IMG/VR virus record: IMGVR_UViG_2687453319_000001
Length of the DNA stretch: 37,753 nucleotides
Direction: 5' to 3' (one strand)
DNA from: a virus
Lineage: Duplodnaviria > Heunggongvirae > Uroviricota > Caudoviricetes
Part shown: piece by piece, positions 8,711 to 37,392 of the stretch
Layout: each line of letters starts with the position of its first letter
Numbering within the stretch: the first letter of the stretch is position 1
Made by a program: the position numbers and the translations under genes
The notes under the pieces: generated by a model
The model's database searches: none
Told to the model about the DNA's origin: nothing
What the model saw: only the letters and a program-made list of their open reading frames with translations

Positions 8711-9591
8711 ACACTCCTCGTCAGTATTCTGGCGGCCATTGCACTTAATCCCGGAGACATGCGGTTGAATGCTGTGCCGGCGGCGTTAAGCTGCCCGGAA
8801 ACGGTATCCAGAGCACCTGCAATATTTCTTTTGTCCACACCACTCAGCGCAGACTGTGCCTGCTGTACATACGTGGCTGCTTCGCTGGCTGTTCTGGCCA
8901 GACTGATGGCATCGGGCATGGATTCAGAGAGTGCGTTAAACGCCGGAACACTTTTCCCCAGAGCCCCGGAGATATTACCCAGTCCGCTCATCAGCCCCGG
9001 CACACGGGTCAGTGCGACAACGGGGTTATCCTTCATTTTCTGTGTCACCCGAACGGCGCTGATAGTGGTCTGGAGTACAGACTGCGCCTGTTTCGCATAG
9101 TTGACGCCGTTGCGGATGAACTGCGCCACCCCTGAAGGTGAAGGAATGGCACCGGAGACCGCCCCGACACCCGGGAGCTTCGTGCGTATTGCCGGTGGTT
9201 GCAGAGGATTTTTCGGATCACCGGTGTATTCCCGGAGAGACACGGTGGCACTGACAGCCAGCACGTTACCGGTGCTGTCTGTCTGCTCGCTGGTTGCGGT
9301 CACATCGGTAATCACGAACCAGCCACGATAGTCACCGTTGCCGAAGACCAGCGCCAGTGCCTGATGGGCTTTCATGGCTGTTCGCAGTCTCGCCAGCTCC
9401 ACATCGGGTACACAATAATGCTGATGGAAAACCAGAGTTATCTGGATTTCGTCCAGCCTGTCGCCGACGAACTGCAGGCCAGGCTTACCCCCGATGCGGG
9501 CATGCTCCGCATAATCGACGCCGAACGTGGCCTCGAAGCCGTCCCAGTAGGTAATCAGCTCAAACTCAATATCACCCAGTACGGCAAACAT
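8707..9591 (-). CDS. Tail protein U-like / DNA circularization protein N-terminal homolog (Mu gp43-like)
   Basis: 294 aa, directly downstream of the tape measure gene; segment ...ALALVFGNGDYRGWFVITDVTATSEQTD... resembles P2 gpU-type proteins. Confidence 0.6.
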   Translation of the reverse strand: MFAVLGDIEFELITYWDGFEATFGVDYAEHARIGGKPGLQFVGDRLDEIQITLVFHQHYCVPDVELARLRTAMKAHQALALVFGNGDYRGWFVITDVTATSEQTDSTGNVLAVSATVSLREYTGDPKNPLQPPAIRTKLPGVGAVSGAIPSPSGVAQFIRNGVNYAKQAQSVLQTTISAVRVTQKMKDNPVVALTRVPGLMSGLGNISGALGKSVPAFNALSESMPDAISLARTASEAATYVQQAQSALSGVDKRNIAGALDTVSGQLNAAGTAFNRMSPGLSAMAARILTRSV

Positions 9592-12500
9592 CAGCGGTAC
9601 TCCTTACGTTGTTTCTGAGCCAGCAGACGCTCCAGCATTTTTTCCAGCTCATGCAGGCTCATATTCAGGGCGCCAGTCAGTCCGGCAGGCGCTGTGGTTT
9701 CCCTGCCATTGAGGAAAAACTGAGGATTAAAGCTGACCTGGATACCACCAGACGTTCCACCGCCGGTTGCAGCTGCACCACGGCCTGAATATCCGGCAGC
9801 CAGGATTTCAGGCGAGGGGATACGGGGAACATCCGGTGTCATCTCATTTGCCAGACGTTGCCCTGGTAAAATCGATGCCCGGGTGGAGAGCGGAATAGCG
9901 GGCATGGAAGACAAACTATTGATTACGGCTCCGATCGCATTTTTAGCAGACGACATAAACCCATTGATATCGGGCAACGGCATACTGAAGCGAACACCTG
10001 AAGTGTTATCCCGTATTTCTGGCCCCTGAATGCTCACGGGCATTTTGGGGAGCAGTTCACTGGCCATTCGCTGCCCGGCCAGAGCTGCAAGCGGAGTGGT
10101 CCGCTGCAGGCCAATGGCGGCCCCCTGCGCGATATTGTCACCAAAGCCCATAAACACGCGGCTCGGCGAATGAATGCCCAGCTTTTCGCTGAACCAGCCA
10201 CTGATGCTGTCACCCATTCCGGTTACACTGGATTTGAGCGACTCCCATTTGTTTTTGATACCGTTAATCAGACCGTCGACAAGATGGCCACCGAAGTCGG
10301 TGAACTTTGCCGGCAGATCAACACCAAGATATTTCAGCGCAGCTGCAAAGGCTTTATAGAGCAGACCTGCCGGCGACCAGTTAATCAGCAGCTTACCAGT
10401 TCCCGCGATACCGCCGTTAAAGGCTTCCTGAATGTCAGCCCAGCACTGTTTAAACCAGCTACTGATGCTGTCACCCATTCCGGTTACACTGGATTTGAGC
10501 GACCCCCATTTGTTTTTGATACCGTTAATCAGACCGTCGATAAGATGGCCACCGAAGTCGGTGAACTTTGCCGGCAGAGCAACGCCGAAATATTTCAGCG
10601 CAGCCGCAAAGGCTTTATAGAGCAGGCCTGCCGGCGACCAGTTAATCAGCAACTTACCAGTTCCCGCGATACCGCCGTTAAAGGCTTCCTGAATGTCAGC
10701 CCAGCACTGTTTAAACCAGCTACTGATGCTGTCACCCATTCCGGTTACACTGGATTTGAGCGACCCCCATTTGTTTTTGATACCGTTAATCAGACCGTCG
10801 ATAAGATGGCCACCGAAGTCGGTGAACTTTGCCGGCAGAGCAACGCCGAAATATTTCAGCGCAGCCGCAAAGGCTTTATAGAGCAGGCCTGCCGGCGACC
10901 AGTTAATCAGCAACTTACCAATTCCCACAATGCCGCCGTTAAAGGCTTCCTGAATGTCTGCCCAGCGCTGTTTAAACCAGCCACTGACTGCCCCCAGTTG
11001 CGGTAGATAAGGTAAGCTGCTGCCGCGACAGCGGTGATAACGAGACCGATGGGATTCATCATCAGCGCACGTCCAATCCAGAGAACAGCACGTCCGGCGA
11101 GCATAATTCCGCGAACCAGCCCCCGGAGAGCACGCCACTCAGTGTTCTGGCTCCTTTGGCGACGGCGCTAAATCCGGTCACCAGCCAGCGGAGCTTACCG
11201 CCTTGCCCCAGTGCGAGCGACAGACGAAGCCAGTTGGCCCGAAGTAAAACAGCATTTTTCCAGACACTTACAAAGGGGGAAATAAGGAGATTCAGCCCCA
11301 GTTTGAGACCAACAGTCGCTATCTTAATCGCAAGGAGCGCACTGATGAGCTTAAAAGCCCCACTGACAAATTGCGGGTGAGTCGCTACCCAGTGTTTTGC
11401 CCCCTGAATGAGTGGAAGCAGTTCCTGAGTCAGAGAAATAAAAGATGGAGCTAATTGATCGCCCAGCGTAATTGCCAGATCACGACTGCTGACCATAAGT
11501 GCTTTAGTGGCTTCAAGGGGAGATTTCAGCCGCTGATCATAAGCACTGGCAAGCAAATCGTTATCCGCAGCCCTGAGAGCACCGGCACGGATCTCTCGAT
11601 ATCTGTCCATGTTGGCCAGCATCGGGCGGATAAATGCCATGACCTGCATATCCGCGAACATATCGCCCAGACCAAAGTTTTTCGCCAGAGCCTGAAGTGC
11701 CTCATCTCTTGCCGTATCATTCTTTATTTTCATGGCTGATTTGAAGCCGGCCAGCGCTTCGGGGCTTTTGGCATTGAGGTAACGTTCTATAACACTCAAC
11801 ATCCCTTCAATCGGAGAGATCCCCGCAGCTTTATAACTCGCAATAGATCCCTGCAAATCAATACCCAGATCAGCAAACTGTTTCTGAGTATCGCGGGCAA
11901 AAATTTTGGTAAGAAAGTTTTTAAAATTATTGGCTGCTTCGTCGGTGGAACCTGCACCGATTTTTGCTATCTGGAGACTGGCCCCGATTTCAGCAACAGC
12001 CTCTTTTCCACTGGCAATACCCGCCATCATTGGGGCCAGGGACTGCATCCACTTGACCTGATCCGGGATTTCAAATGACCCCTGGTCACCGGCATAAGCC
12101 ATAATATTCTGAACGGCACCAAAATCTCTGGCCGCACCTTTCAGGGAGTTTTGCCAGACTGCGGCCACTTTTGCCCAGTCCTGAGCAGACGTGCGTGTTG
12201 CCGTTGCCGCGCGGGCAATATCCGGCATCAGAAAACCGATATCTGACACATTATCAATATTGTCGCTGATGAGTGAACCCACCGCCTCCTGCAGCTCATC
12301 CTGATACTGATTGTATTTAAGCGCCCAGCCTTTTATCTGTCCGGCAAGTGCATCCCGCGTTTTATTGTCATATTTTGCGGTGATCGACATATCAATCATT
12401 TTGTCCTGAAAAGACATGGACTGCTGAACGGCAGGGGAAACCGTATGATAAACAGTCTGTGCCATGCCATACGCTTCAATCCCCTGACCATACAGCGCCA

Positions 12501-12801
12501 TGCGGTTAGCTTTCAGCGCATCACTGGTAGCGGATGCCGCTGACAGACGGCGCTGCTGGCGCTCAATTTGCTCCATGGTGCGGCTTACCCGCAGCAGCTC
12601 GCTGTTGAGATGCTGCATCCGGGAAGAACCCAGTTGACCATAACGTTCTGTTGCACGGGTTAAAGCGTTCTGACGTTCCTGCAGGCGGCGTGAGGTATCG
12701 CTCAGGGAATCAAGCGCACGGCGGGTACCGCTCATTGCAGAACGGAATGTGCTACCAATCATCCCGCCGATAACAACGCCGACTGAAAACTGTCCCGACA
12801 T
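9591..12801 (-). CDS. Tail tape measure protein (single gene split by two apparent frameshifts)
   Basis: RBS GGAGG before ATG at 12801. Three overlapping ORFs read continuously if C5 runs at 11120-11124 and 10991-10995 were C6 (...GARTLSGVLSGG|LVRGIMLAGRAVLWIG...YLIYRNWGQ|AVSGWFKQRWADIQEAFNGG); coiled-coil N-terminal part and internal repeats. Confidence 0.8.
10200..10985. repeat. Three tandem 261-bp (87-aa) repeats inside the tape measure gene
   Basis: Protein repeat SSWFKQCWADIQEAFNGGIAGTGKLLINWSPAGLLYKAFAAALKYFGVALPAKFTDFGGHLIDGLINGIKNKWGSLKSSVTGMGDSI x3; antisense ORFs at 10432 and 10693 are identical. Confidence 0.9.
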
Positions 12802-25598: not shown

Positions 25599-26322
25599 AA
25601 CTGCTGCCTCCCCATGTGAGATATCGCGGTGCCAGTTCGCGCAGGATGCGCTGCGGATAATGGCGGTTCTCCCGCCAGCTGGCCGCATTGCGTCCGGCAT
25701 TCACCGTGGCGACATGTCCGAACCAGCGGGTGCTGTCCAGACCTTTCTGTGATGCAAGCCGCCTGTCCCGTTGTACCCAGCCCAGACCACCGTTATAGCC
25801 CGACAGTGTCATGGCCATACGCTCGCAGTCACTGGCGGCGCTGACACGCTGCCACAGCCAGCGGTCATAGCTGACCAGCGCCCGGATAGCCCATGCCGGA
25901 TTAAACGGCTCACGACTGCTCAGCATCGGTATCAACTGGCTTATCCAGTCGGCAGTGGCAGGCATGAACTGCGCCAGTCCCTGAGCGCCAGCCGGCGAGA
26001 TCGCATCAGGTCGCCAGCCGCTTTCCTGATGCAGTTGCGCGGCGAAATCGGCCACCGGCGCAGACAGTCCCCATTCAAGCCGGGCATTACGGATCACATC
26101 ATCGCGATACTGCAGCGCAGCCTGCGGAGGTTGTGCTGCGCATGCCTGGCTAAAAAAGCCGCCACACCAGAGCAACATTGCGACAAAGAATACCCATGCC
26201 ATATGAACCAGAAAGGTCCCGGCGCGGACTGACAGGCGTTCGGTTCTGATGAAGACCCGAAAGGCTTCGAAAGCCAGTTTCAGGGACATGCATACAATCC
26301 AGGTGATCTGCGGCCAGTTCAT
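25582..26322 (-). CDS. Endolysin: lytic transglycosylase (SLT domain) with N-terminal hydrophobic/signal region
   Basis: SLT catalytic region ...AQLHQESGWRPDAISPAGAQGLAQFMPATADWI...; hydrophobic N-terminus (second Met at 26202 starts a signal-peptide-like segment MAWVFFVAMLLWCGGFFSQACAAQ). Confidence 0.85.
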   Translation of the reverse strand: MNWPQITWIVCMSLKLAFEAFRVFIRTERLSVRAGTFLVHMAWVFFVAMLLWCGGFFSQACAAQPPQAALQYRDDVIRNARLEWGLSAPVADFAAQLHQESGWRPDAISPAGAQGLAQFMPATADWISQLIPMLSSREPFNPAWAIRALVSYDRWLWQRVSAASDCERMAMTLSGYNGGLGWVQRDRRLASQKGLDSTRWFGHVATVNAGRNAASWRENRHYPQRILRELAPRYLTWGGSSCVASG

Positions 26323-26324
26323 GA

Positions 26325-26675
26325 TTAAAGCCCCATCGCAACAGCCAGGCAGACCGCTGCAACAATCAGTGCACGGCGGATTAACGCAGCAGAAAACACC
26401 AGGTGAAGGCCGGTCTGTACCGGGAAACGCCCTTCAGCCATCAGCCTGTCGTCATGTTTCAGGTACTGACCGGGACGGGCTTTGGGGAAGAGCGAACGGT
26501 CAAGCCAGTAACCCAGCACTGCTGCCAGCGTGATGAGTGCCAGCTTGTAGATCACAACAGGCAGCTGCTGTGGTGAGACCAGAGCGATGGTGCCCAGCAA
26601 CAGCACTGAGGTCAGCAGCCAGCCGCTGAGGCGAGGTTTTTTAACAGGGGGAATGAATTTTTTCAGGTTTTTCAT
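26325..26675 (-). CDS. Membrane protein, holin candidate
   Basis: Likely start at 26675 with AAGGAG RBS; about three predicted TM segments; first gene of the lysis cassette. Confidence 0.45.
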   Translation of the reverse strand: MKNLKKFIPPVKKPRLSGWLLTSVLLLGTIALVSPQQLPVVIYKLALITLAAVLGYWLDRSLFPKARPGQYLKHDDRLMAEGRFPVQTGLHLVFSAALIRRALIVAAVCLAVAMGL

Positions 26676-26805
26676 GTGTGTCTCCTTATCTGGTGGAGAC
26701 AGCATCACAAATACAGGGCGCGAAGGATTTTAAAGCGCGTTAAGAGAGCCGGGGATACGGGATGTGCAGGATAAACGATGAATTATTCACAGAGGAGAAT
26801 ACGAT

Positions 26806-27282
26806 ATGACGCACACACTGAATCCGGTCATCACTGTCACTGTGTCCGGTCCTGTGGGCAGCGGTAAAAGTTACGTACTGGCGCGGATAGAAGAGATGGT
26901 GAAACAGGAACTCGGAAACAGCGTCATTGTCGATGCTGCTGACGTGGAGAATGAGCGCCGTATGAATGGCGAAGATCTGACGACCTGGCAGAAGCCACGG
27001 GGTGGCACAGTGATCAGGCTGGAGGAATACACGGGACAGGGCCTGTTGTCATACGGCGAGGAGCGTATCTGTCGGACGAATGAGCTGCTGGATGTTATAT
27101 GCCCCACGGGCCGGCAACCCTGGATACTGCCCGATGCACTGCATGCCACCATTGCGGCACTGATGACAGTTTACGATCAGGAGCTGCTCATGAAGGAGTT
27201 ACGTAAACTCACCGGTCAGCCAACAGAATGTTGTTCGTCTCCGAAGTACGGCAAACAGGAAAACGCCCCGGATAATCCTTAA
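26806..27282 (+). CDS. Small P-loop NTPase of unknown function (accessory gene)
   Basis: 158 aa, AGGAG RBS; Walker A GPVGSGKS and possible Walker B VIVDAAD; only + strand gene in the late half; convergent with the repressor operon. Confidence 0.5.
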   Translation: MTHTLNPVITVTVSGPVGSGKSYVLARIEEMVKQELGNSVIVDAADVENERRMNGEDLTTWQKPRGGTVIRLEEYTGQGLLSYGEERICRTNELLDVICPTGRQPWILPDALHATIAALMTVYDQELLMKELRKLTGQPTECCSSPKYGKQENAPDNP

Positions 27283-27301
27283 GATACCTCCTGAACAGAA
27301 A

Positions 27302-27317
27302 CAGCCCTGAAGGGCTG
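27302..27317 (-). terminator. Hairpin (CAGCCC-tgaa-GGGCTG) between convergent genes; putative terminator of the repressor operon
   Basis: Perfect 6-bp stem directly after the stop of the 27320..27910 gene, T-rich tract adjacent on the minus strand. Confidence 0.35.
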
Positions 27318-27319
27318 CA

Positions 27320-27910
27320 CTAAAAAAAGAAGTGTATTATTGCCCAAACAGCTATAACGATGATTCCCAGCCCAAGAGCCGATTCTAACTTATCTTTGGC
27401 AGTCATTTTTACTGTTGTAGCGGGCGCAGGTAAGTCTTGCTGCTGTGGATTTTCTGTTAGTTGTTTACGAGAAGAAACATCGCCCCTGTTAGTTTGCTTC
27501 ATGTTGATTACAGATGCGTTATGGGCATTATCAGCAGCAATTGACTGAAGTTTTACAAAAGTTTTTGAATCTGTTTTAGCCAGAAGTAACCTATTTCCCG
27601 TAAACATTGCCTTAAAAGTGATAGTTTTTTTCGTCTTGTCCGCCGCACCAAGCAAACCTCCAATGACCAACCCTGCACCACCAAAGATTAATCCACCAAG
27701 CAAACCTGCGCCTGCCGCCTTACCTATACGGCTTTCCTCTTCACTATCCGCAAGTTCAATCGATAAAAGCTCTTCTTTCAGATTTAATACAATATTTTCA
27801 GGAAAGCCTTGTTTTGGTTTTTTGGCAAACACGATGGTACCGAACCCCATGCTTGCCCACCCTTTAGGAAAACTTCCTGCGATAACCTGAATCCCTGCCA
27901 TGTTCATCAC
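27320..27910 (-). CDS. Accessory membrane protein Y: glycine-zipper TM plus C-terminal TM (candidate exclusion/abortive-infection effector)
   Basis: 196 aa (start possibly at 27901, RBS AAGGTG); GKAAGAGLLGGLIFGGAGLVIGGLLGA glycine-zipper segment and C-terminal LGLGIIVIAVWAIIHFFF; last gene of the repressor operon. Confidence 0.5.
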   Translation of the reverse strand: MMNMAGIQVIAGSFPKGWASMGFGTIVFAKKPKQGFPENIVLNLKEELLSIELADSEEESRIGKAAGAGLLGGLIFGGAGLVIGGLLGAADKTKKTITFKAMFTGNRLLLAKTDSKTFVKLQSIAADNAHNASVINMKQTNRGDVSSRKQLTENPQQQDLPAPATTVKMTAKDKLESALGLGIIVIAVWAIIHFFF

Positions 27911-27991
27911 CTTTTACATTAAAATTTCAGAACGCAGCATGATGCCGCCTTTGTCTTTTTTCTGATCCCATGGTAATTCAGCTGTTATTTT

Positions 27992-28978
27992 CTATTTAAG
28001 AATAAAACGGTATTTACTGTCAGGAGTGCTTTGCTGATCAAGTAGCAGTGAACGACATGGAGCAGTCAAAACCCGAGCATAACTACCATCAGGGCTTATG
28101 TTAATGTAACAAACCTTGCCCTTAACACTATAATTTTCGGGGACGGATGCCTTTGCTGATACAGTAAATTTAAGGGTATGCCAGCCCGTTTTTTGCTTGT
28201 AGCTTGAAACCGAATGGAAATCATCTGAGTACTTATTTAACCCTGGAAACATGCTGCGCAGTGCGGGGATGGAATCTTCTATTATTTTATCGTTGGTTTT
28301 AATGTTAAAAACGCTGGTTTCAGTAGAAGCTACTGCTTTGGCATTTCCCCATTTACCAGCGAACACAATCATTCCCACGAAAAATATTGCTACAAGAACT
28401 AACACTCCCCCCAACACTACTACATGAGGCTTCCGGCTTCTGGTTGGTACAGTTGCGACTGATTTTGCACCGCTTTCCGATGGAGGTGATAGAGTTTTAC
28501 TCTCATCACGAATATTCAGCAGATCATCAAAATAACCAAACACAGCCTGCAACTGCTCTTTGTCTAGGCCTTTAAGATGGGTTGTACCGAAATGCTTCAG
28601 ACAGTATCTGTCACGGTCAAGACGATACCCAGGGTCAGTAAGCGCCATTATTTTGCTGACCAGAAGATTACAGTCCTTCATATTCTGGATCTGTTGTGCA
28701 TATCTCTGAAGGATCTCAACCGCACCATGATAATCAGCCGCAGTCATTTCATTAACTGTTTTGGTATTAAGTTTCGTGTGGATCGTCATCCATAGCTCGC
28801 GCTTACTTTCCCCCAGATCAACCAATTCATCCATCAATCTGTGTAAATCGCGTTTTTGCAGCAACGAAATTGGTTGCTGGGCCGAAGGAAGTATGTCAGC
28901 AGAATAGTTATGAATGGTAACATCACCGCTGACAACGTTACCCACATCCCCGTTAACTGTTTGCTTCTCTTTACTCAT
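27992..28978 (-). CDS. Accessory protein X: cytoplasmic N-domain, single TM, periplasmic C-domain (candidate sensor of a Rex-like module)
   Basis: 328 aa; start overlaps the repressor stop; TM HVVVLGGVLVLVAIFFVGMIVFAG; N-terminal motif GDVGNVVSGDVTI resembles the repressor C-terminal HGDVLGNVIKGNVTI. Confidence 0.5.
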   Translation of the reverse strand: MSKEKQTVNGDVGNVVSGDVTIHNYSADILPSAQQPISLLQKRDLHRLMDELVDLGESKRELWMTIHTKLNTKTVNEMTAADYHGAVEILQRYAQQIQNMKDCNLLVSKIMALTDPGYRLDRDRYCLKHFGTTHLKGLDKEQLQAVFGYFDDLLNIRDESKTLSPPSESGAKSVATVPTRSRKPHVVVLGGVLVLVAIFFVGMIVFAGKWGNAKAVASTETSVFNIKTNDKIIEDSIPALRSMFPGLNKYSDDFHSVSSYKQKTGWHTLKFTVSAKASVPENYSVKGKVCYINISPDGSYARVLTAPCRSLLLDQQSTPDSKYRFILK

Positions 28979-29400
28979 CTTCTCTTGGTATTTTTGTTCA
29001 TTATTCCACCTGTTCCTATGGTTACGTTACCTTTGATAACATTCCCCAGAACATCTCCATGAATAACCTGTTCCGCCCGTTCTCTGGAGGAGCCAGTAGT
29101 CAAGGCCGACAAAACTGAACCTTTGACCTGTAATGGTGCCTGCCGGTAGTGCTGCAGTAACTCCATTTCATCACGTGATAAAGTTATACCTGATGACTCC
29201 CCGGTAAGAATGAACTGTACATTGGCCCCAATTCTTGCAAAGGCTGCAAGTAACTCACCTCCGGGAACAGCAACCCCTCGTTCATATTTCCCCCACATTT
29301 CTCTTGAAACGCCACAAAGGGCTGCTACTTCAGCCTGCTTGAGTGATAACCGCGAACGCTCAGCTTTGAACCGCGACGCGCAAAGAGAATCAAAATTCAC
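28975..29400 (-). CDS. Prophage repressor (HTH, XRE/Cro-C1 family); start uncertain (GTG 29400 or ATG 29436)
   Basis: HTH segment LSLKQAEVAALCGVSREMWGKYERG; divergent from the early operon; the ORF-track ATG at 29436 lies inside the -10 of the early promoter, so GTG at 29400 (GAGG RBS) is more plausible. Confidence 0.8.
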   Translation of the reverse strand: MNFDSLCASRFKAERSRLSLKQAEVAALCGVSREMWGKYERGVAVPGGELLAAFARIGANVQFILTGESSGITLSRDEMELLQHYRQAPLQVKGSVLSALTTGSSRERAEQVIHGDVLGNVIKGNVTIGTGGIMNKNTKRR

Positions 29401-29410
29401 ATAAACCTCA

Positions 29411-29439
29411 TTGACAATGAGAACAATAGTTCTCATAAT
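29411..29439 (+). promoter_or_regulatory. Early promoter Pe (TTGACA-17 bp-CATAAT) with a 20-bp perfect palindromic operator (ATGAGAACAATAGTTCTCAT, 29417-29436) in the spacer
   Basis: Consensus -35, 17-bp spacer, near-consensus -10, about 45 bp upstream of the first early gene; palindrome fills the spacer. Confidence 0.6.
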
Positions 29440-29486
29440 CTATCACATATAAAACAAACATCATTGCATCAACAAAGGAGACAACA

Positions 29487-29675
29487 ATGACTTCCGAACA
29501 AGTTAAAAATCTCTTCCGTCAGCGTGGTATCACGTTTACCCGCTGGGCCGAAGAACACGGCTACAGCCGCAATGAGGTCTATCGTGTTCTCAATGGACAG
29601 ACCAAAGCTCGTTACGGCAAAGCCCATGAAATTGCCGTAAAACTGGGATTAAAACCCACGTCAAATGCGGCATAA
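29487..29675 (+). CDS. Small DNA-binding early regulator (Ner/Cro-like)
   Basis: 62 aa, AAGGAG RBS; first gene of the early operon divergent from the repressor, as Mu ner. Confidence 0.55.
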   Translation: MTSEQVKNLFRQRGITFTRWAEEHGYSRNEVYRVLNGQTKARYGKAHEIAVKLGLKPTSNAA

Positions 29676-29727
29676 ATTTTCCACATATGCAACAGGTTAT
29701 CACATATTGCAAAAATGGAAATGTGAC

Positions 29728-30036
29728 ATGAGTAAAGTAAATATTTCCAGTTCTGGGACCCGCATCCTACGTGTACTCAAAGCTCTACGCGGTCATGCTC
29801 TGAACGGTGTTTCTAACGGTGAACTGGCATCAGCCCTGGGGGAGTCCCCGGCGAATATCAATCGAGCACTTAATACCCTTATTGAAGAGGGACTGGCCAT
29901 GAAATTAGAGAACGGACGTTTCGCACCGGGAATCCAGTTACTACAGATCGCCATGGCTCACAGTCACGAGATGGCGCGTGCACAGGATCGTATTAACGAA
30001 ATCAACCAACGAGTTATTTCAGGTAGTCGTTTGTAA
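29728..30036 (+). CDS. Winged-helix transcriptional regulator (IclR-like HTH domain only)
   Basis: TRILRVLKALRGHALNGVSNGELASALGESPANINRALNTLIEEGLAMKLENGRF resembles the IclR N-terminal HTH. Confidence 0.5.
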   Translation: MSKVNISSSGTRILRVLKALRGHALNGVSNGELASALGESPANINRALNTLIEEGLAMKLENGRFAPGIQLLQIAMAHSHEMARAQDRINEINQRVISGSRL

Positions 30037-36942: not shown

Positions 36943-37392
36943 ATGCAGAAAAAACGCCTGATACAGCTTATCCATATTGCCCGTAATGAACTGGGTATGG
37001 ATGAAGACACCTACCGCCAGATGTTACAGGGGCTGACCGGTAAAGCCTCAACCAAAGGAATGGATACCACACAACTAAACTGCGTGCTGGAATCCATGAA
37101 AAAGAAAGGCTTTCGCGTTAAACCAGCCAGAAAAGCCAGCTCCGGTTTACCGCTGGATAACCATCCGCAGTCCAGGAAAATTCGTGCGCTATGGCTTGAA
37201 ATGGCTGCTGCCGGCATTGTTCGTGACCGTTCAGAAAATGCATTAGCGAGGTGGATCAAGCGGGAAACGGGCATCAGCGCCCTGCGCTGGCTCAGTACTG
37301 AACAGGCAAGCAGTGTTATTGAGAAACTGAAGAAGTGGCAGCGCAGAGCTGCGGGAGTCAAACATGAGCGACCTGAATCAGTTTCGAAGTAA
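36943..37392 (+). CDS. gemA: GemA-like regulatory protein (Mu gp16 family)
   Basis: 149 aa; LIQLIHIARNELGMDEDTYRQMLQGLTGKAS...QSRKIRALWLEMAAAGIVRD...ARWIKRETGISALRWLSTEQASSVIEKLKKW parallels Mu GemA. Confidence 0.8.
   Translation: MQKKRLIQLIHIARNELGMDEDTYRQMLQGLTGKASTKGMDTTQLNCVLESMKKKGFRVKPARKASSGLPLDNHPQSRKIRALWLEMAAAGIVRDRSENALARWIKRETGISALRWLSTEQASSVIEKLKKWQRRAAGVKHERPESVSK

Follow-up and report, generated by a model that had tools for sequence, protein, structure and literature searches.

A small modular P-loop gene divergent from the holin gene in a BcepMu-like prophage of Escherichia coli and its putative late promoter

Introduction

What does a single plus-strand gene do within a long block of minus-strand phage genes? 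The stretch of DNA analysed here in full (IMG/VR record IMGVR_UViG_2687453319_000001, 37,753 nucleotides; hereafter the window) corresponds to an entire transposable prophage of Escherichia coli that is BcepMu-like (genus Bcepmuvirus). All credible genes between positions 1 and 29436 are on the minus strand except one open reading frame (ORF), located on the plus strand at 26806-27282. The remaining long plus-strand ORFs of this interval are antisense frames within larger minus-strand genes. The protein encoded by ORF 26806-27282 carries a phosphate-binding loop (P-loop) of the Walker A type, and we refer to its gene as the P-loop gene.

The initial annotation, made from the sequence alone, had described an ORF with its own ribosome-binding site (RBS) and a Walker A motif, surrounded by about 29 kb of minus-strand sequence, and direct reading bore out this description. 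The gene was further thought to be a lone, typically placed moron, possibly nucleotide kinase-like or toxin-like. Two features had been missed: the gene is a shortened version of a gene coding for 242 or 247 amino acids (aa), and it diverges from the holin gene across a conserved 130-bp spacer. Taken as a whole, the observations are best explained by a modular gene of the phage backbone, expressed late under a Mor-type activator, whose product would bind a phosphate-bearing ligand and act in counter-defence or host manipulation. We hold this explanation tentatively, with somewhat less than even confidence.

A conserved accessory gene of backbone composition

The coding sequence runs from an ATG at 26806 to a TAA stop ending at 27282 and gives a soluble, mildly acidic protein of 158 aa (pI ~5; WP_000149906.1). 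The RBS, GAGGAG at 26792-26797 on the plus strand, was read directly 8 nt ahead of the ATG, and the alignment shows conservation of its AGGA core. The Walker A motif GPVGSGKS (aa 15-22; 26848-26871, plus strand) was read from the translation.

We found that the ORF is a real gene under purifying selection. It is not a chance frame, since it is annotated in RefSeq, belongs to PHROG 3787, occurs as DNA in 571 of 5426 complete E. coli genomes, and has a ratio of nonsynonymous to synonymous substitution rates (dN/dS) of 0.19-0.47 against its relatives. PHROG 3787 is a phage family of unknown function with a profile of 242 positions; residues 1-157 of the protein match profile positions 1-157 (E=2.1e-107, 359 bits). 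The 158-aa form itself is found at an identity of at least 99% in about 100 complete genomes. A literature search on the accession numbers and the PHROG identifier found nothing.

The P-loop gene is present in 24 IMG/VR relatives of the prophage and is not in Klebsiella phage KP12, Phi06_2974 B, BcepMu or KS10. It is placed at the edge of a variable region. Its GC content (the fraction of G and C) is 0.51-0.57, compared to 0.55-0.62 for the late region and 0.39-0.45 for the adjacent immunity module. Virion or assembly homology was sought in Pfam, PHROGs, NCBIfam, PDB sequences and fold searches, and none was found, in agreement with the non-virion status supposed in the initial annotation. That the P-loop gene is a non-structural accessory gene with the composition of the backbone is well supported. 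The earlier notion of a moron-type accessory stood in so far as the gene is non-structural, patchy in close relatives and located at the edge of a variable region; it failed on the GC content, which matches the late region.

A family that shares one small P-loop domain

A word-indexed protein search returned close E. coli relatives only, and an exhaustive HMMER search over 1.84 billion representatives was needed to reveal the family. This search produced only 64 family proteins, with nearly all of the distant matches restricted to profile positions 1-75, and PHROG 3787 was detected in all distant relatives via these positions. The corresponding part of the window protein, module 1 or the N-domain (aa 1-75; 26806-27030, plus strand), is a mini Walker-A domain and, as seen in the alignments and the AlphaFold2 model, the only part conserved throughout the family. 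Its pattern is a hydrophobic stretch, GxxGxGK[S/T], the helix VLAxIExAL, a second hydrophobic stretch, ER, W..P and hhhLEE. Only G20 and K21 were invariant among 37 family members. Some members have GKN instead of GKS/T, which would favor ligand binding over Mg-dependent hydrolysis.

Module 1 alone makes up proteins of 70-90 aa in Yersinia, Acinetobacter and metagenomic phages, and it also forms the N-terminus of proteins of 130-364 aa with unrelated C-termini. A different arrangement was observed in a single 2.9-kb metagenome contig (L040, 1919-2398), where a 159-aa protein has the PG_binding_1 domain (E=4.7e-15) ahead of the mini P-loop domain; this fusion is the only hint of a cell-wall link.

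Module 2 (aa ~85-136; 27058-27213, plus strand; core PWILPDALHATIAALMTVYDQELLMKELRKL) is helical in the AlphaFold2 model, with helices at 85-98, 110-122 and 125-136 and a predicted local distance difference test score (pLDDT) of 58-75. It was delimited also by its occurrence in other proteins. Module 2 is C-terminal in proteins with unrelated N-termini (P0057, P0058), it also occurs in P0024 and P0028, and it is the natural C-terminus of several relatives as well as of a 141-aa E. coli variant. Contig L032 has three separate genes in a row, one each for the N-domain (88 aa), an ORF of 161 aa and an ORF of 76 aa, the last of which corresponds to the third module of the E. coli form. In P0024, P0049 and P0036 these pieces occur fused. 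In KP12 (L003), at the position of the P-loop gene, we found an unannotated 107-aa ORF on the plus strand (~5794-6117; MTEPKQTGLKKGFLFGI…) that has no P-loop domain. The module that makes up this ORF is joined to the mini P-loop domain in P0034, P0050 and P0052, and to module 2 in P0057. Such fusion and fission suggest that the modules work together.

Two leads from these searches were discarded. The protein P0046 (2018 aa), in which module 2 was matched as '15 repeats', was set aside as a repetitive sequence whose many Pfam matches are implausible. A scan of genome contigs was swamped by generic Walker A patterns and left two loci, one of which (L006) is a Walker A motif inside a 345-aa ORF.

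The names given to the family in databases are inconsistent. The window protein is an 'ABC transporter ATPase' in RefSeq, and other members are called 'KAP family NTPase', 'P-loop NTPase fold protein', 'uridine kinase' or 'Ni2+-binding GTPase'. The Walker A motif is the sole basis of all these names. When the window protein and the full-length form from Escherichia phage PhiKM were scanned against Pfam, NCBIfam and PADLOC, we observed only sub-threshold matches limited to the Walker A region. For example, Pfam ABC_tran reached 13.6 bits against a cut-off of 25 and covered residues 4-49 only; KAP had 14.6 bits against 20; in NCBIfam, guanylate kinase had 12.9 against 263 and uridine kinase 12.5 against 180. 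The best PADLOC defence family (SngB) had an E-value of 0.007. A search of the 158-aa sequence for an LSGGQ-like motif found none. The ABC transporter ATPase name was therefore rejected, given the sub-cut-off score, the missing signature motifs and the lack of transporter partner genes nearby.

Structural comparison gave a similar picture. The AlphaFold2 model of the N-domain had a pLDDT of 91.1 and a predicted template modelling score (pTM) of 0.78, while the remaining protein was only moderately modelled. PDB sequences matched the N-domain profile at positions 10-48 only, i.e. the Walker A strand, loop, helix and next strand; the matches were ABC domains (E~1e-5), cytidylate kinase, the 'phosphate-loop protein' 6c2u and the designed minimal ATPase 9jix. 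A fold search against the PDB had no match to the N-domain, and the sole structure match in BFVD was an unnamed 82-aa homolog. The secondary-structure readout of the model listed helices only, so that a classical P-loop sandwich was not confirmed by the model. An alpha/beta core of at least five strands (~140 aa or more), matching known nucleoside triphosphatases (NTPases) in structure, was not found in the N-domain. As candidates for Walker B there are two segments, VIVD (aa 40-43) and IRLEE (aa 70-74), and the conservation of both within the family is only partial.

We conclude that the protein carries a real P-loop motif on a domain too small for a canonical NTPase, and that the RefSeq name is a misnomer. 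It is well supported that the protein is not an ABC ATPase, a kinase, a toxin or a virion protein. The kinase-like or toxin-like function proposed earlier was thus not upheld: the kinase, zeta-toxin, ABC and KAP matches extend over the Walker A strand and helix only and remain below the cut-offs.

The holin-side spacer and a putative late promoter

The P-loop gene is separated from the start of the divergent holin gene (26675, minus strand) by a spacer of 130 bp (26676-26805). This length was exactly the same in all 24 IMG/VR loci and in contig L032, a metagenome contig, and it was kept even when the holin was only 65-68% identical and the C-terminus of the P-loop protein was unrelated. In an alignment of eight spacers, four of them from divergent phages, only three blocks were invariant: CAGCAT, a 14-bp palindrome, and GCAG(G/A)AT.

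The palindrome, TTAAAGCGCGTTAA at 26730-26743, has a core that is invariant in all loci including KP12 and is perfect in locus L029 (TTAAAGCGCTTTAA); it is the putative site of a dimeric late activator. The CAGCAT block marks a -10-like hexamer on the minus strand (GATGCT, 26701-26706) preceded by TGn, as in an extended -10, and this would be the holin/lysis promoter with a transcription start near 26694. The GCAG(G/A)AT block marks a -10-like hexamer on the plus strand (CAGGAT, 26767-26772), the candidate promoter of the P-loop gene with a start near 26779. The centres of both hexamers were exactly 33.0 bp from the centre of the palindrome in all 15 loci in which the spacing was measured, and in KP12 the sequence CCAGAAT is kept ahead of the different plus-strand ORF. 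No sigma-70 consensus promoter was found ahead of the P-loop gene.

The late promoters of phage Mu that depend on C or Mor have a good -10 hexamer, no -35 hexamer, and a dyad-symmetric activator site centred ~42-43 bp upstream. With these promoters as an analogy, and given the conservation and the geometry of the spacer, we infer that one dimeric activator site, at about -42.5 from both predicted start sites, serves two divergent late promoters. By the same analogy the activator acting at the palindrome would be of the Mor type. Unlike in Mu, a single palindrome here appears to serve two divergent promoters, and the putative activator site is unrelated in sequence to that of Mu. The P-loop protein itself was considered as the late activator and rejected, as a Mor-family transcription activator gene is present (37364-37753, plus strand; Pfam Mor E=1.3e-43; RefSeq annotation). 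The product of this gene is the candidate activator of the bidirectional promoter.

Matches to the palindrome with at most three mismatches numbered 9 in the window, compared to 0.77 expected. A second copy (TTAAAGGCGTTTAA, 6741-6754) is located between baseplate genes V and W and has the hexamer AATACT, again exactly 33 bp away, solely on the late strand. The segment 6712-6754 is probably another activator-dependent late promoter, in this case unidirectional. Late, activator-dependent expression of the P-loop gene is moderately supported by these sequence patterns. If the promoter is shared with the holin gene, expression is to be expected in the lytic cycle rather than in the lysogen.

We also observed a 7-nt inverted repeat, TGTCTCC/GGAGACA (26679-26701), that overlaps the RBS of the holin gene and is conserved in divergent phages. 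The two arms could pair in mRNA and mask this RBS; the 5' arm is probably upstream of the predicted start site, and the hairpin fold was no better than that of shuffled sequence (z-score -1.2).

The P-loop gene could instead be a moron expressed in the lysogen, i.e. a gene transcribed from the prophage that provides defence, superinfection exclusion or a toxin-like function by means of a small P-loop NTPase or kinase. We regard this as unlikely, though several observations agree with it. The presence of the gene among close relatives is patchy, it borders the variable immunity region, a hairpin follows it downstream, and it is widespread in E. coli lineages including sequence type 131 (ST131); the conserved N-terminus with variable C-termini also recalls arms-race genes. 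On the other hand, a GC content equal to that of the phage backbone, the lack of a sigma-70 promoter and a conserved symmetric promoter of the activator type in common with the holin gene all speak against it. With these features and the fixed 130-bp spacer, the 'lone' and 'typical moron' placement of the initial annotation was not supported. Homologs in other phages occupy lytic operons, oriented with HNH and terminase genes, or contigs with TubZ, ligase and primase. Finally, no PADLOC family was matched, Pfam Zeta_toxin reached 12.6 bits against a cut-off of 22.3, and the downstream hairpin has no U tract on the plus strand.

The shortened form and the module swap

In PhiKM, in the ST131 strain JJ2434 and in most IMG/VR relatives, the P-loop gene codes for proteins of 242 or 247 aa. 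The window copy is without PHROG 3787 positions 158-242 (module 3), and a search across the whole window confirmed that module 3 is absent. DNA homology to the 242/247-aa forms fades at 27262-27280, in a Pro-rich linker that precedes the last ~85 residues. The recombination junction and the new C-terminal tail (…NAPDNP, stop) thus occupy 27262-27282 on the plus strand, as located by the DNA alignments. The GC content falls from ~0.55 to ~0.42 at the end of the homology, with the drop beginning at ~27280.

The 158-aa form was always linked to a low-GC module of three minus-strand genes that form an operon convergent with the P-loop gene: a helix-turn-helix (HTH) repressor of 153 aa (HTH153, 28975-29436), orf328 (328 aa, 27992-28978), and orf196 (196 aa, 27320-27910). 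The N-terminus of the orf328 product resembles the flagellar regulator Flk (NCBIfam E=3e-12, below the cut-off), and orf196 has no family match. The 242/247-aa and 141-aa forms were linked to other modules. It is well supported that the P-loop gene was truncated by a module swap in which the low-GC repressor/immunity module replaced the downstream DNA and removed module 3. The low-GC operon (27320-29436) stands in place of a region of related phages that contains a Dam methylase gene. Judged by composition, the imported cargo would be this module and not the P-loop gene, and the module may carry an exclusion function expressed in the lysogen.

A GC-rich hairpin (27301-27318) lies between the convergent genes. 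Read on the minus strand it has a folding energy of -19.8 kcal/mol (z-score -4.75) and is followed by the U-rich tail UUUCUGUU; on the plus strand the energy is -12.3 kcal/mol, and an A-run follows with no U tract. The hairpin is missing at this position in PhiKM and JJ2434. It is predicted to be chiefly the terminator of the repressor operon, for which it is convincing, and, in view of the module-swap junction, it is part of the incoming minus-strand module and not of the P-loop gene. The convergence with the repressor operon and the hairpin between the two, both noted before, are therefore real, while the hairpin is not a shared one.

Neighborhoods of the homologs

The stand-alone homologs reside in a cluster of small genes that directly precedes the small terminase gene; in most cases they have an HNH gene as a neighbor, and they share the orientation of the lytic operon. 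In Acinetobacter and other prophages, for example, the homolog is beside HNH and just upstream of the genes for the small and large terminase subunits (TerS/TerL). In a Yersinia prophage the homolog follows the lysis genes and precedes the HNH and terminase genes, and it overlaps the LysC (PF23793) gene upstream of it by a single base, the last of LysC and the first of the homolog. Some homologs were found on contigs that also have TubZ, DNA ligase and primase genes.

Genes with the Acb2/Tad1-hairpin domain, the domain of anti-CBASS and anti-Thoeris sponges, were observed near the homologs in three unrelated phage contigs. They are adjacent or one gene away in L005 (8457-8687) and L046 (6663-6893), and within ~4.5 kb in L038 (1180-1596), where a weak match to Sequestin also occurs within a few kb. 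In L042 a Lar-like gene (weak Lar match) is near the homolog. In the BcepMu-like relatives, the plus-strand unit with the P-loop gene continues into a Dam methylase gene. In this respect it resembles com-mom of Mu, an accessory operon that is switched on late. It is the Acb2/Tad1-hairpin and Lar-like neighbors, the Dam methylase gene on the same strand, and the absence of the P-loop gene from sister phages that point to counter-defence.

Several points weigh against this reading. The anti-defence neighbors are situated in general accessory-gene hot spots. The most consistent position of the stand-alone homologs is the one just upstream of the small terminase gene beside HNH, and one homolog is fused to a peptidoglycan-binding domain; given this position and this fusion, a role in packaging or lysis fits as well. 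The window copy, being without module 3, may be functionally impaired. Furthermore, the putative promoters were assigned by conservation and geometry only.

The P-loop gene would then be a late-morphogenesis helper, a small nucleotide-binding accessory of lysis or DNA packaging. Its constant adjacency to the holin gene in BcepMu-like phages, the one-base overlap with LysC ahead of the HNH and terminase genes in Yersinia, the HNH/TerS/TerL neighbors in Acinetobacter and other prophages, the PG_binding_1 fusion and the presumed co-activation with the late genes would all be accommodated. We nevertheless consider such a role quite unlikely. The gene is sporadic, and KP12, Phi06_2974 B, BcepMu and KS10 have the same lysis and packaging genes without it. 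Free shuffling and loss of modules would be unusual for a part of a core machine, the region ahead of the terminase genes is itself a general hot spot of accessory genes, and the PG_binding fusion is known from that one short metagenome contig.

The prophage and its surroundings

The segment 26700-29700 was 100% identical to many E. coli chromosomes, and PhiKM is the closest sequenced phage. In strain AR_0015 the element resides between grxA and ybjC, with the Mor-family gene at one end and an invertase and tail-fibre segment at the other. The late genes extend leftwards from 26675 on the minus strand and include those for holin, SLT endolysin, spanin-like proteins, DUF3486, the large terminase, and head and tail proteins. 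The early operon starts at ~29500 on the plus strand and codes for Ner-like, IclR-like HTH, DUF3102, DDE transposase, ExeA-like ATPase, Gam, GemA and Mor proteins. A scan of 26000-30000 against Rfam found no RNA family.

Besides these genes, we noticed two features of the tail region. The segment 428-2700 has an invertase (recombinase family) and tail-fibre/assembly genes; in AR_0015 it is flipped with respect to the window, with two fibre-assembly genes on the opposite strand, as expected for a Gin-type invertible host-range segment. The tail tape-measure region (9591-12801, minus strand) is divided into two overlapping ORFs, 11062-12801 and 9591-11138, whose counterparts in AR_0015 are marked by RefSeq as incomplete pseudogenes. 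The prophage may be defective, or a frameshift may be used there.

Discussion

In the explanation that we prefer, the P-loop gene would be read from the plus half of a bidirectional promoter common to the holin/late operon. A Mor-type activator would switch it on in lytic growth and not in the lysogen. The invariant Gly-Lys of the P-loop would bind a phosphate-bearing ligand, probably a nucleotide or a nucleotide-derived signal. The other modules, separate neighboring genes in some phages, would probably be partners or adaptors, and the set of modules would most likely serve counter-defence or host manipulation during the lytic cycle. The sequence evidence hints weakly that the protein may be the phosphate- or nucleotide-binding subunit of such a set; counter-defence by ligand binding is our best guess at the function and is offered with low confidence.

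It is very unlikely that the 158-aa copy is a decaying, functionless leftover of the 242/247-aa gene: module 3 is lost and the databases hold many other truncated, frameshifted or internally deleted variants (105-118, 143 and 182 aa), but the dN/dS values are low, the cut falls exactly at the inter-module linker, the same ending is retained by another 158-aa lineage that has diverged (P0013, 83% identical), module 3 is optional, as seen from the natural 141-aa forms and from the N-domain standing alone, and nearly identical 158-aa copies persist in the ~100 genomes mentioned above.

Could the protein be a true catalytic P-loop NTPase or kinase, with an active site completed by oligomerisation? 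The canonical GxxGxGKS with its invariant Lys, an acidic residue after the last hydrophobic stretch (…IRLEE) that could act as Walker B, the likeness to the beta1-P-loop-alpha1-beta2 unit of ABC domains and to cytidylate kinase, and the presence of 9jix and 6c2u among the best PDB sequence matches would be in keeping with catalysis. We find it highly improbable, as the conserved unit has only ~75 aa (70-90 aa in the stand-alone homologs), conserved Walker B, lid or base-recognition elements are missing, and some members have GKN.

Comparison with better known proteins leads in the same direction. The Walker A strand, P-loop, helix and next strand of ABC nucleotide-binding domains resemble family positions 10-48 (E~1e-5 against ABCB1; aligned segment 'tiaLvGpSGsGKStvvsLIeRfy…G.i.iDG.Di'). 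However, only ~38 residues align, and the window protein has no LSGGQ, Q-loop, Walker B/D-loop or H-loop. P-loop kinases (cytidylate, uridine, guanylate) and zeta toxins scored far below the cut-offs; the NMP-binding and lid regions are missing from the window protein, and the conserved mini P-loop unit is less than half the size of the smallest kinases.

The designed P-loop proteins (6c2u, 9jix) are likewise very small and have one beta-(GxxGxGKS)-alpha element (PDB sequence E 6e-4). By analogy, the mini P-loop domain may work as they do, as a binder of phosphate ligands that probably needs oligomerisation. The P-loop prototypes of the Tawfik laboratory are reportedly laboratory constructs derived from consensus NTPase sequences; the family described here, in contrast, occurs naturally in phages, is acidic (pI ~5) and has a conserved tail of its own, ER…W..P…hhhLEE.

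With respect to function, the nearest working analogy is that of the nucleotide-signal sponges. Acb2, Tad1/Tad2, Sequestin and Lockin (PMC12265669) are small soluble phage proteins of accessory regions. The P-loop protein is likewise small, soluble and encoded in an accessory region, and some of its homologs are beside Acb2/Tad1-hairpin genes. A phosphate-binding loop would suit ligands of the sponge type, though this is a working analogy only; in sequence or fold the P-loop protein has no similarity to Acb2, Tad1/Tad2, Sequestin or Lockin.

A bolder version of our reading, which we consider quite doubtful, would be that phages have a natural family of minimal P-loop proteins, represented by the Walker-A unit of ~75 residues standing alone, which would be smaller than every P-loop NTPase characterised so far. 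Its oligomers, alone or with the partner modules, would bind a nucleotide-derived molecule and sequester it or hand it over. The family would then be a new class of late-expressed counter-defence sponges or adaptors, under a previously undescribed bidirectional late promoter of the Mor type in the BcepMu-like phages of enterobacteria.

PHROG 3787 was known before, without an assigned function, and annotations of the gene exist in hundreds of genomes. The present analysis adds the natural Walker-A unit of ~75 aa, the fusion and fission by which modules are exchanged between proteins at one locus, the mechanism of the truncation, and the model of a bidirectional late promoter. About one in ten complete E. 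coli genomes, ST131 included, carries the P-loop gene under misleading names. For research on protein evolution, the 75-residue Walker-A domain is a natural counterpart to the laboratory 'P-loop prototypes'. For phage biology, the P-loop protein is a compact candidate for a nucleotide-binding accessory or counter-defence factor, and module fusion and fission at one fixed locus points to its partner proteins. The symmetric promoter offers a concrete model of late-gene activation in a little-studied group of transposable phages.

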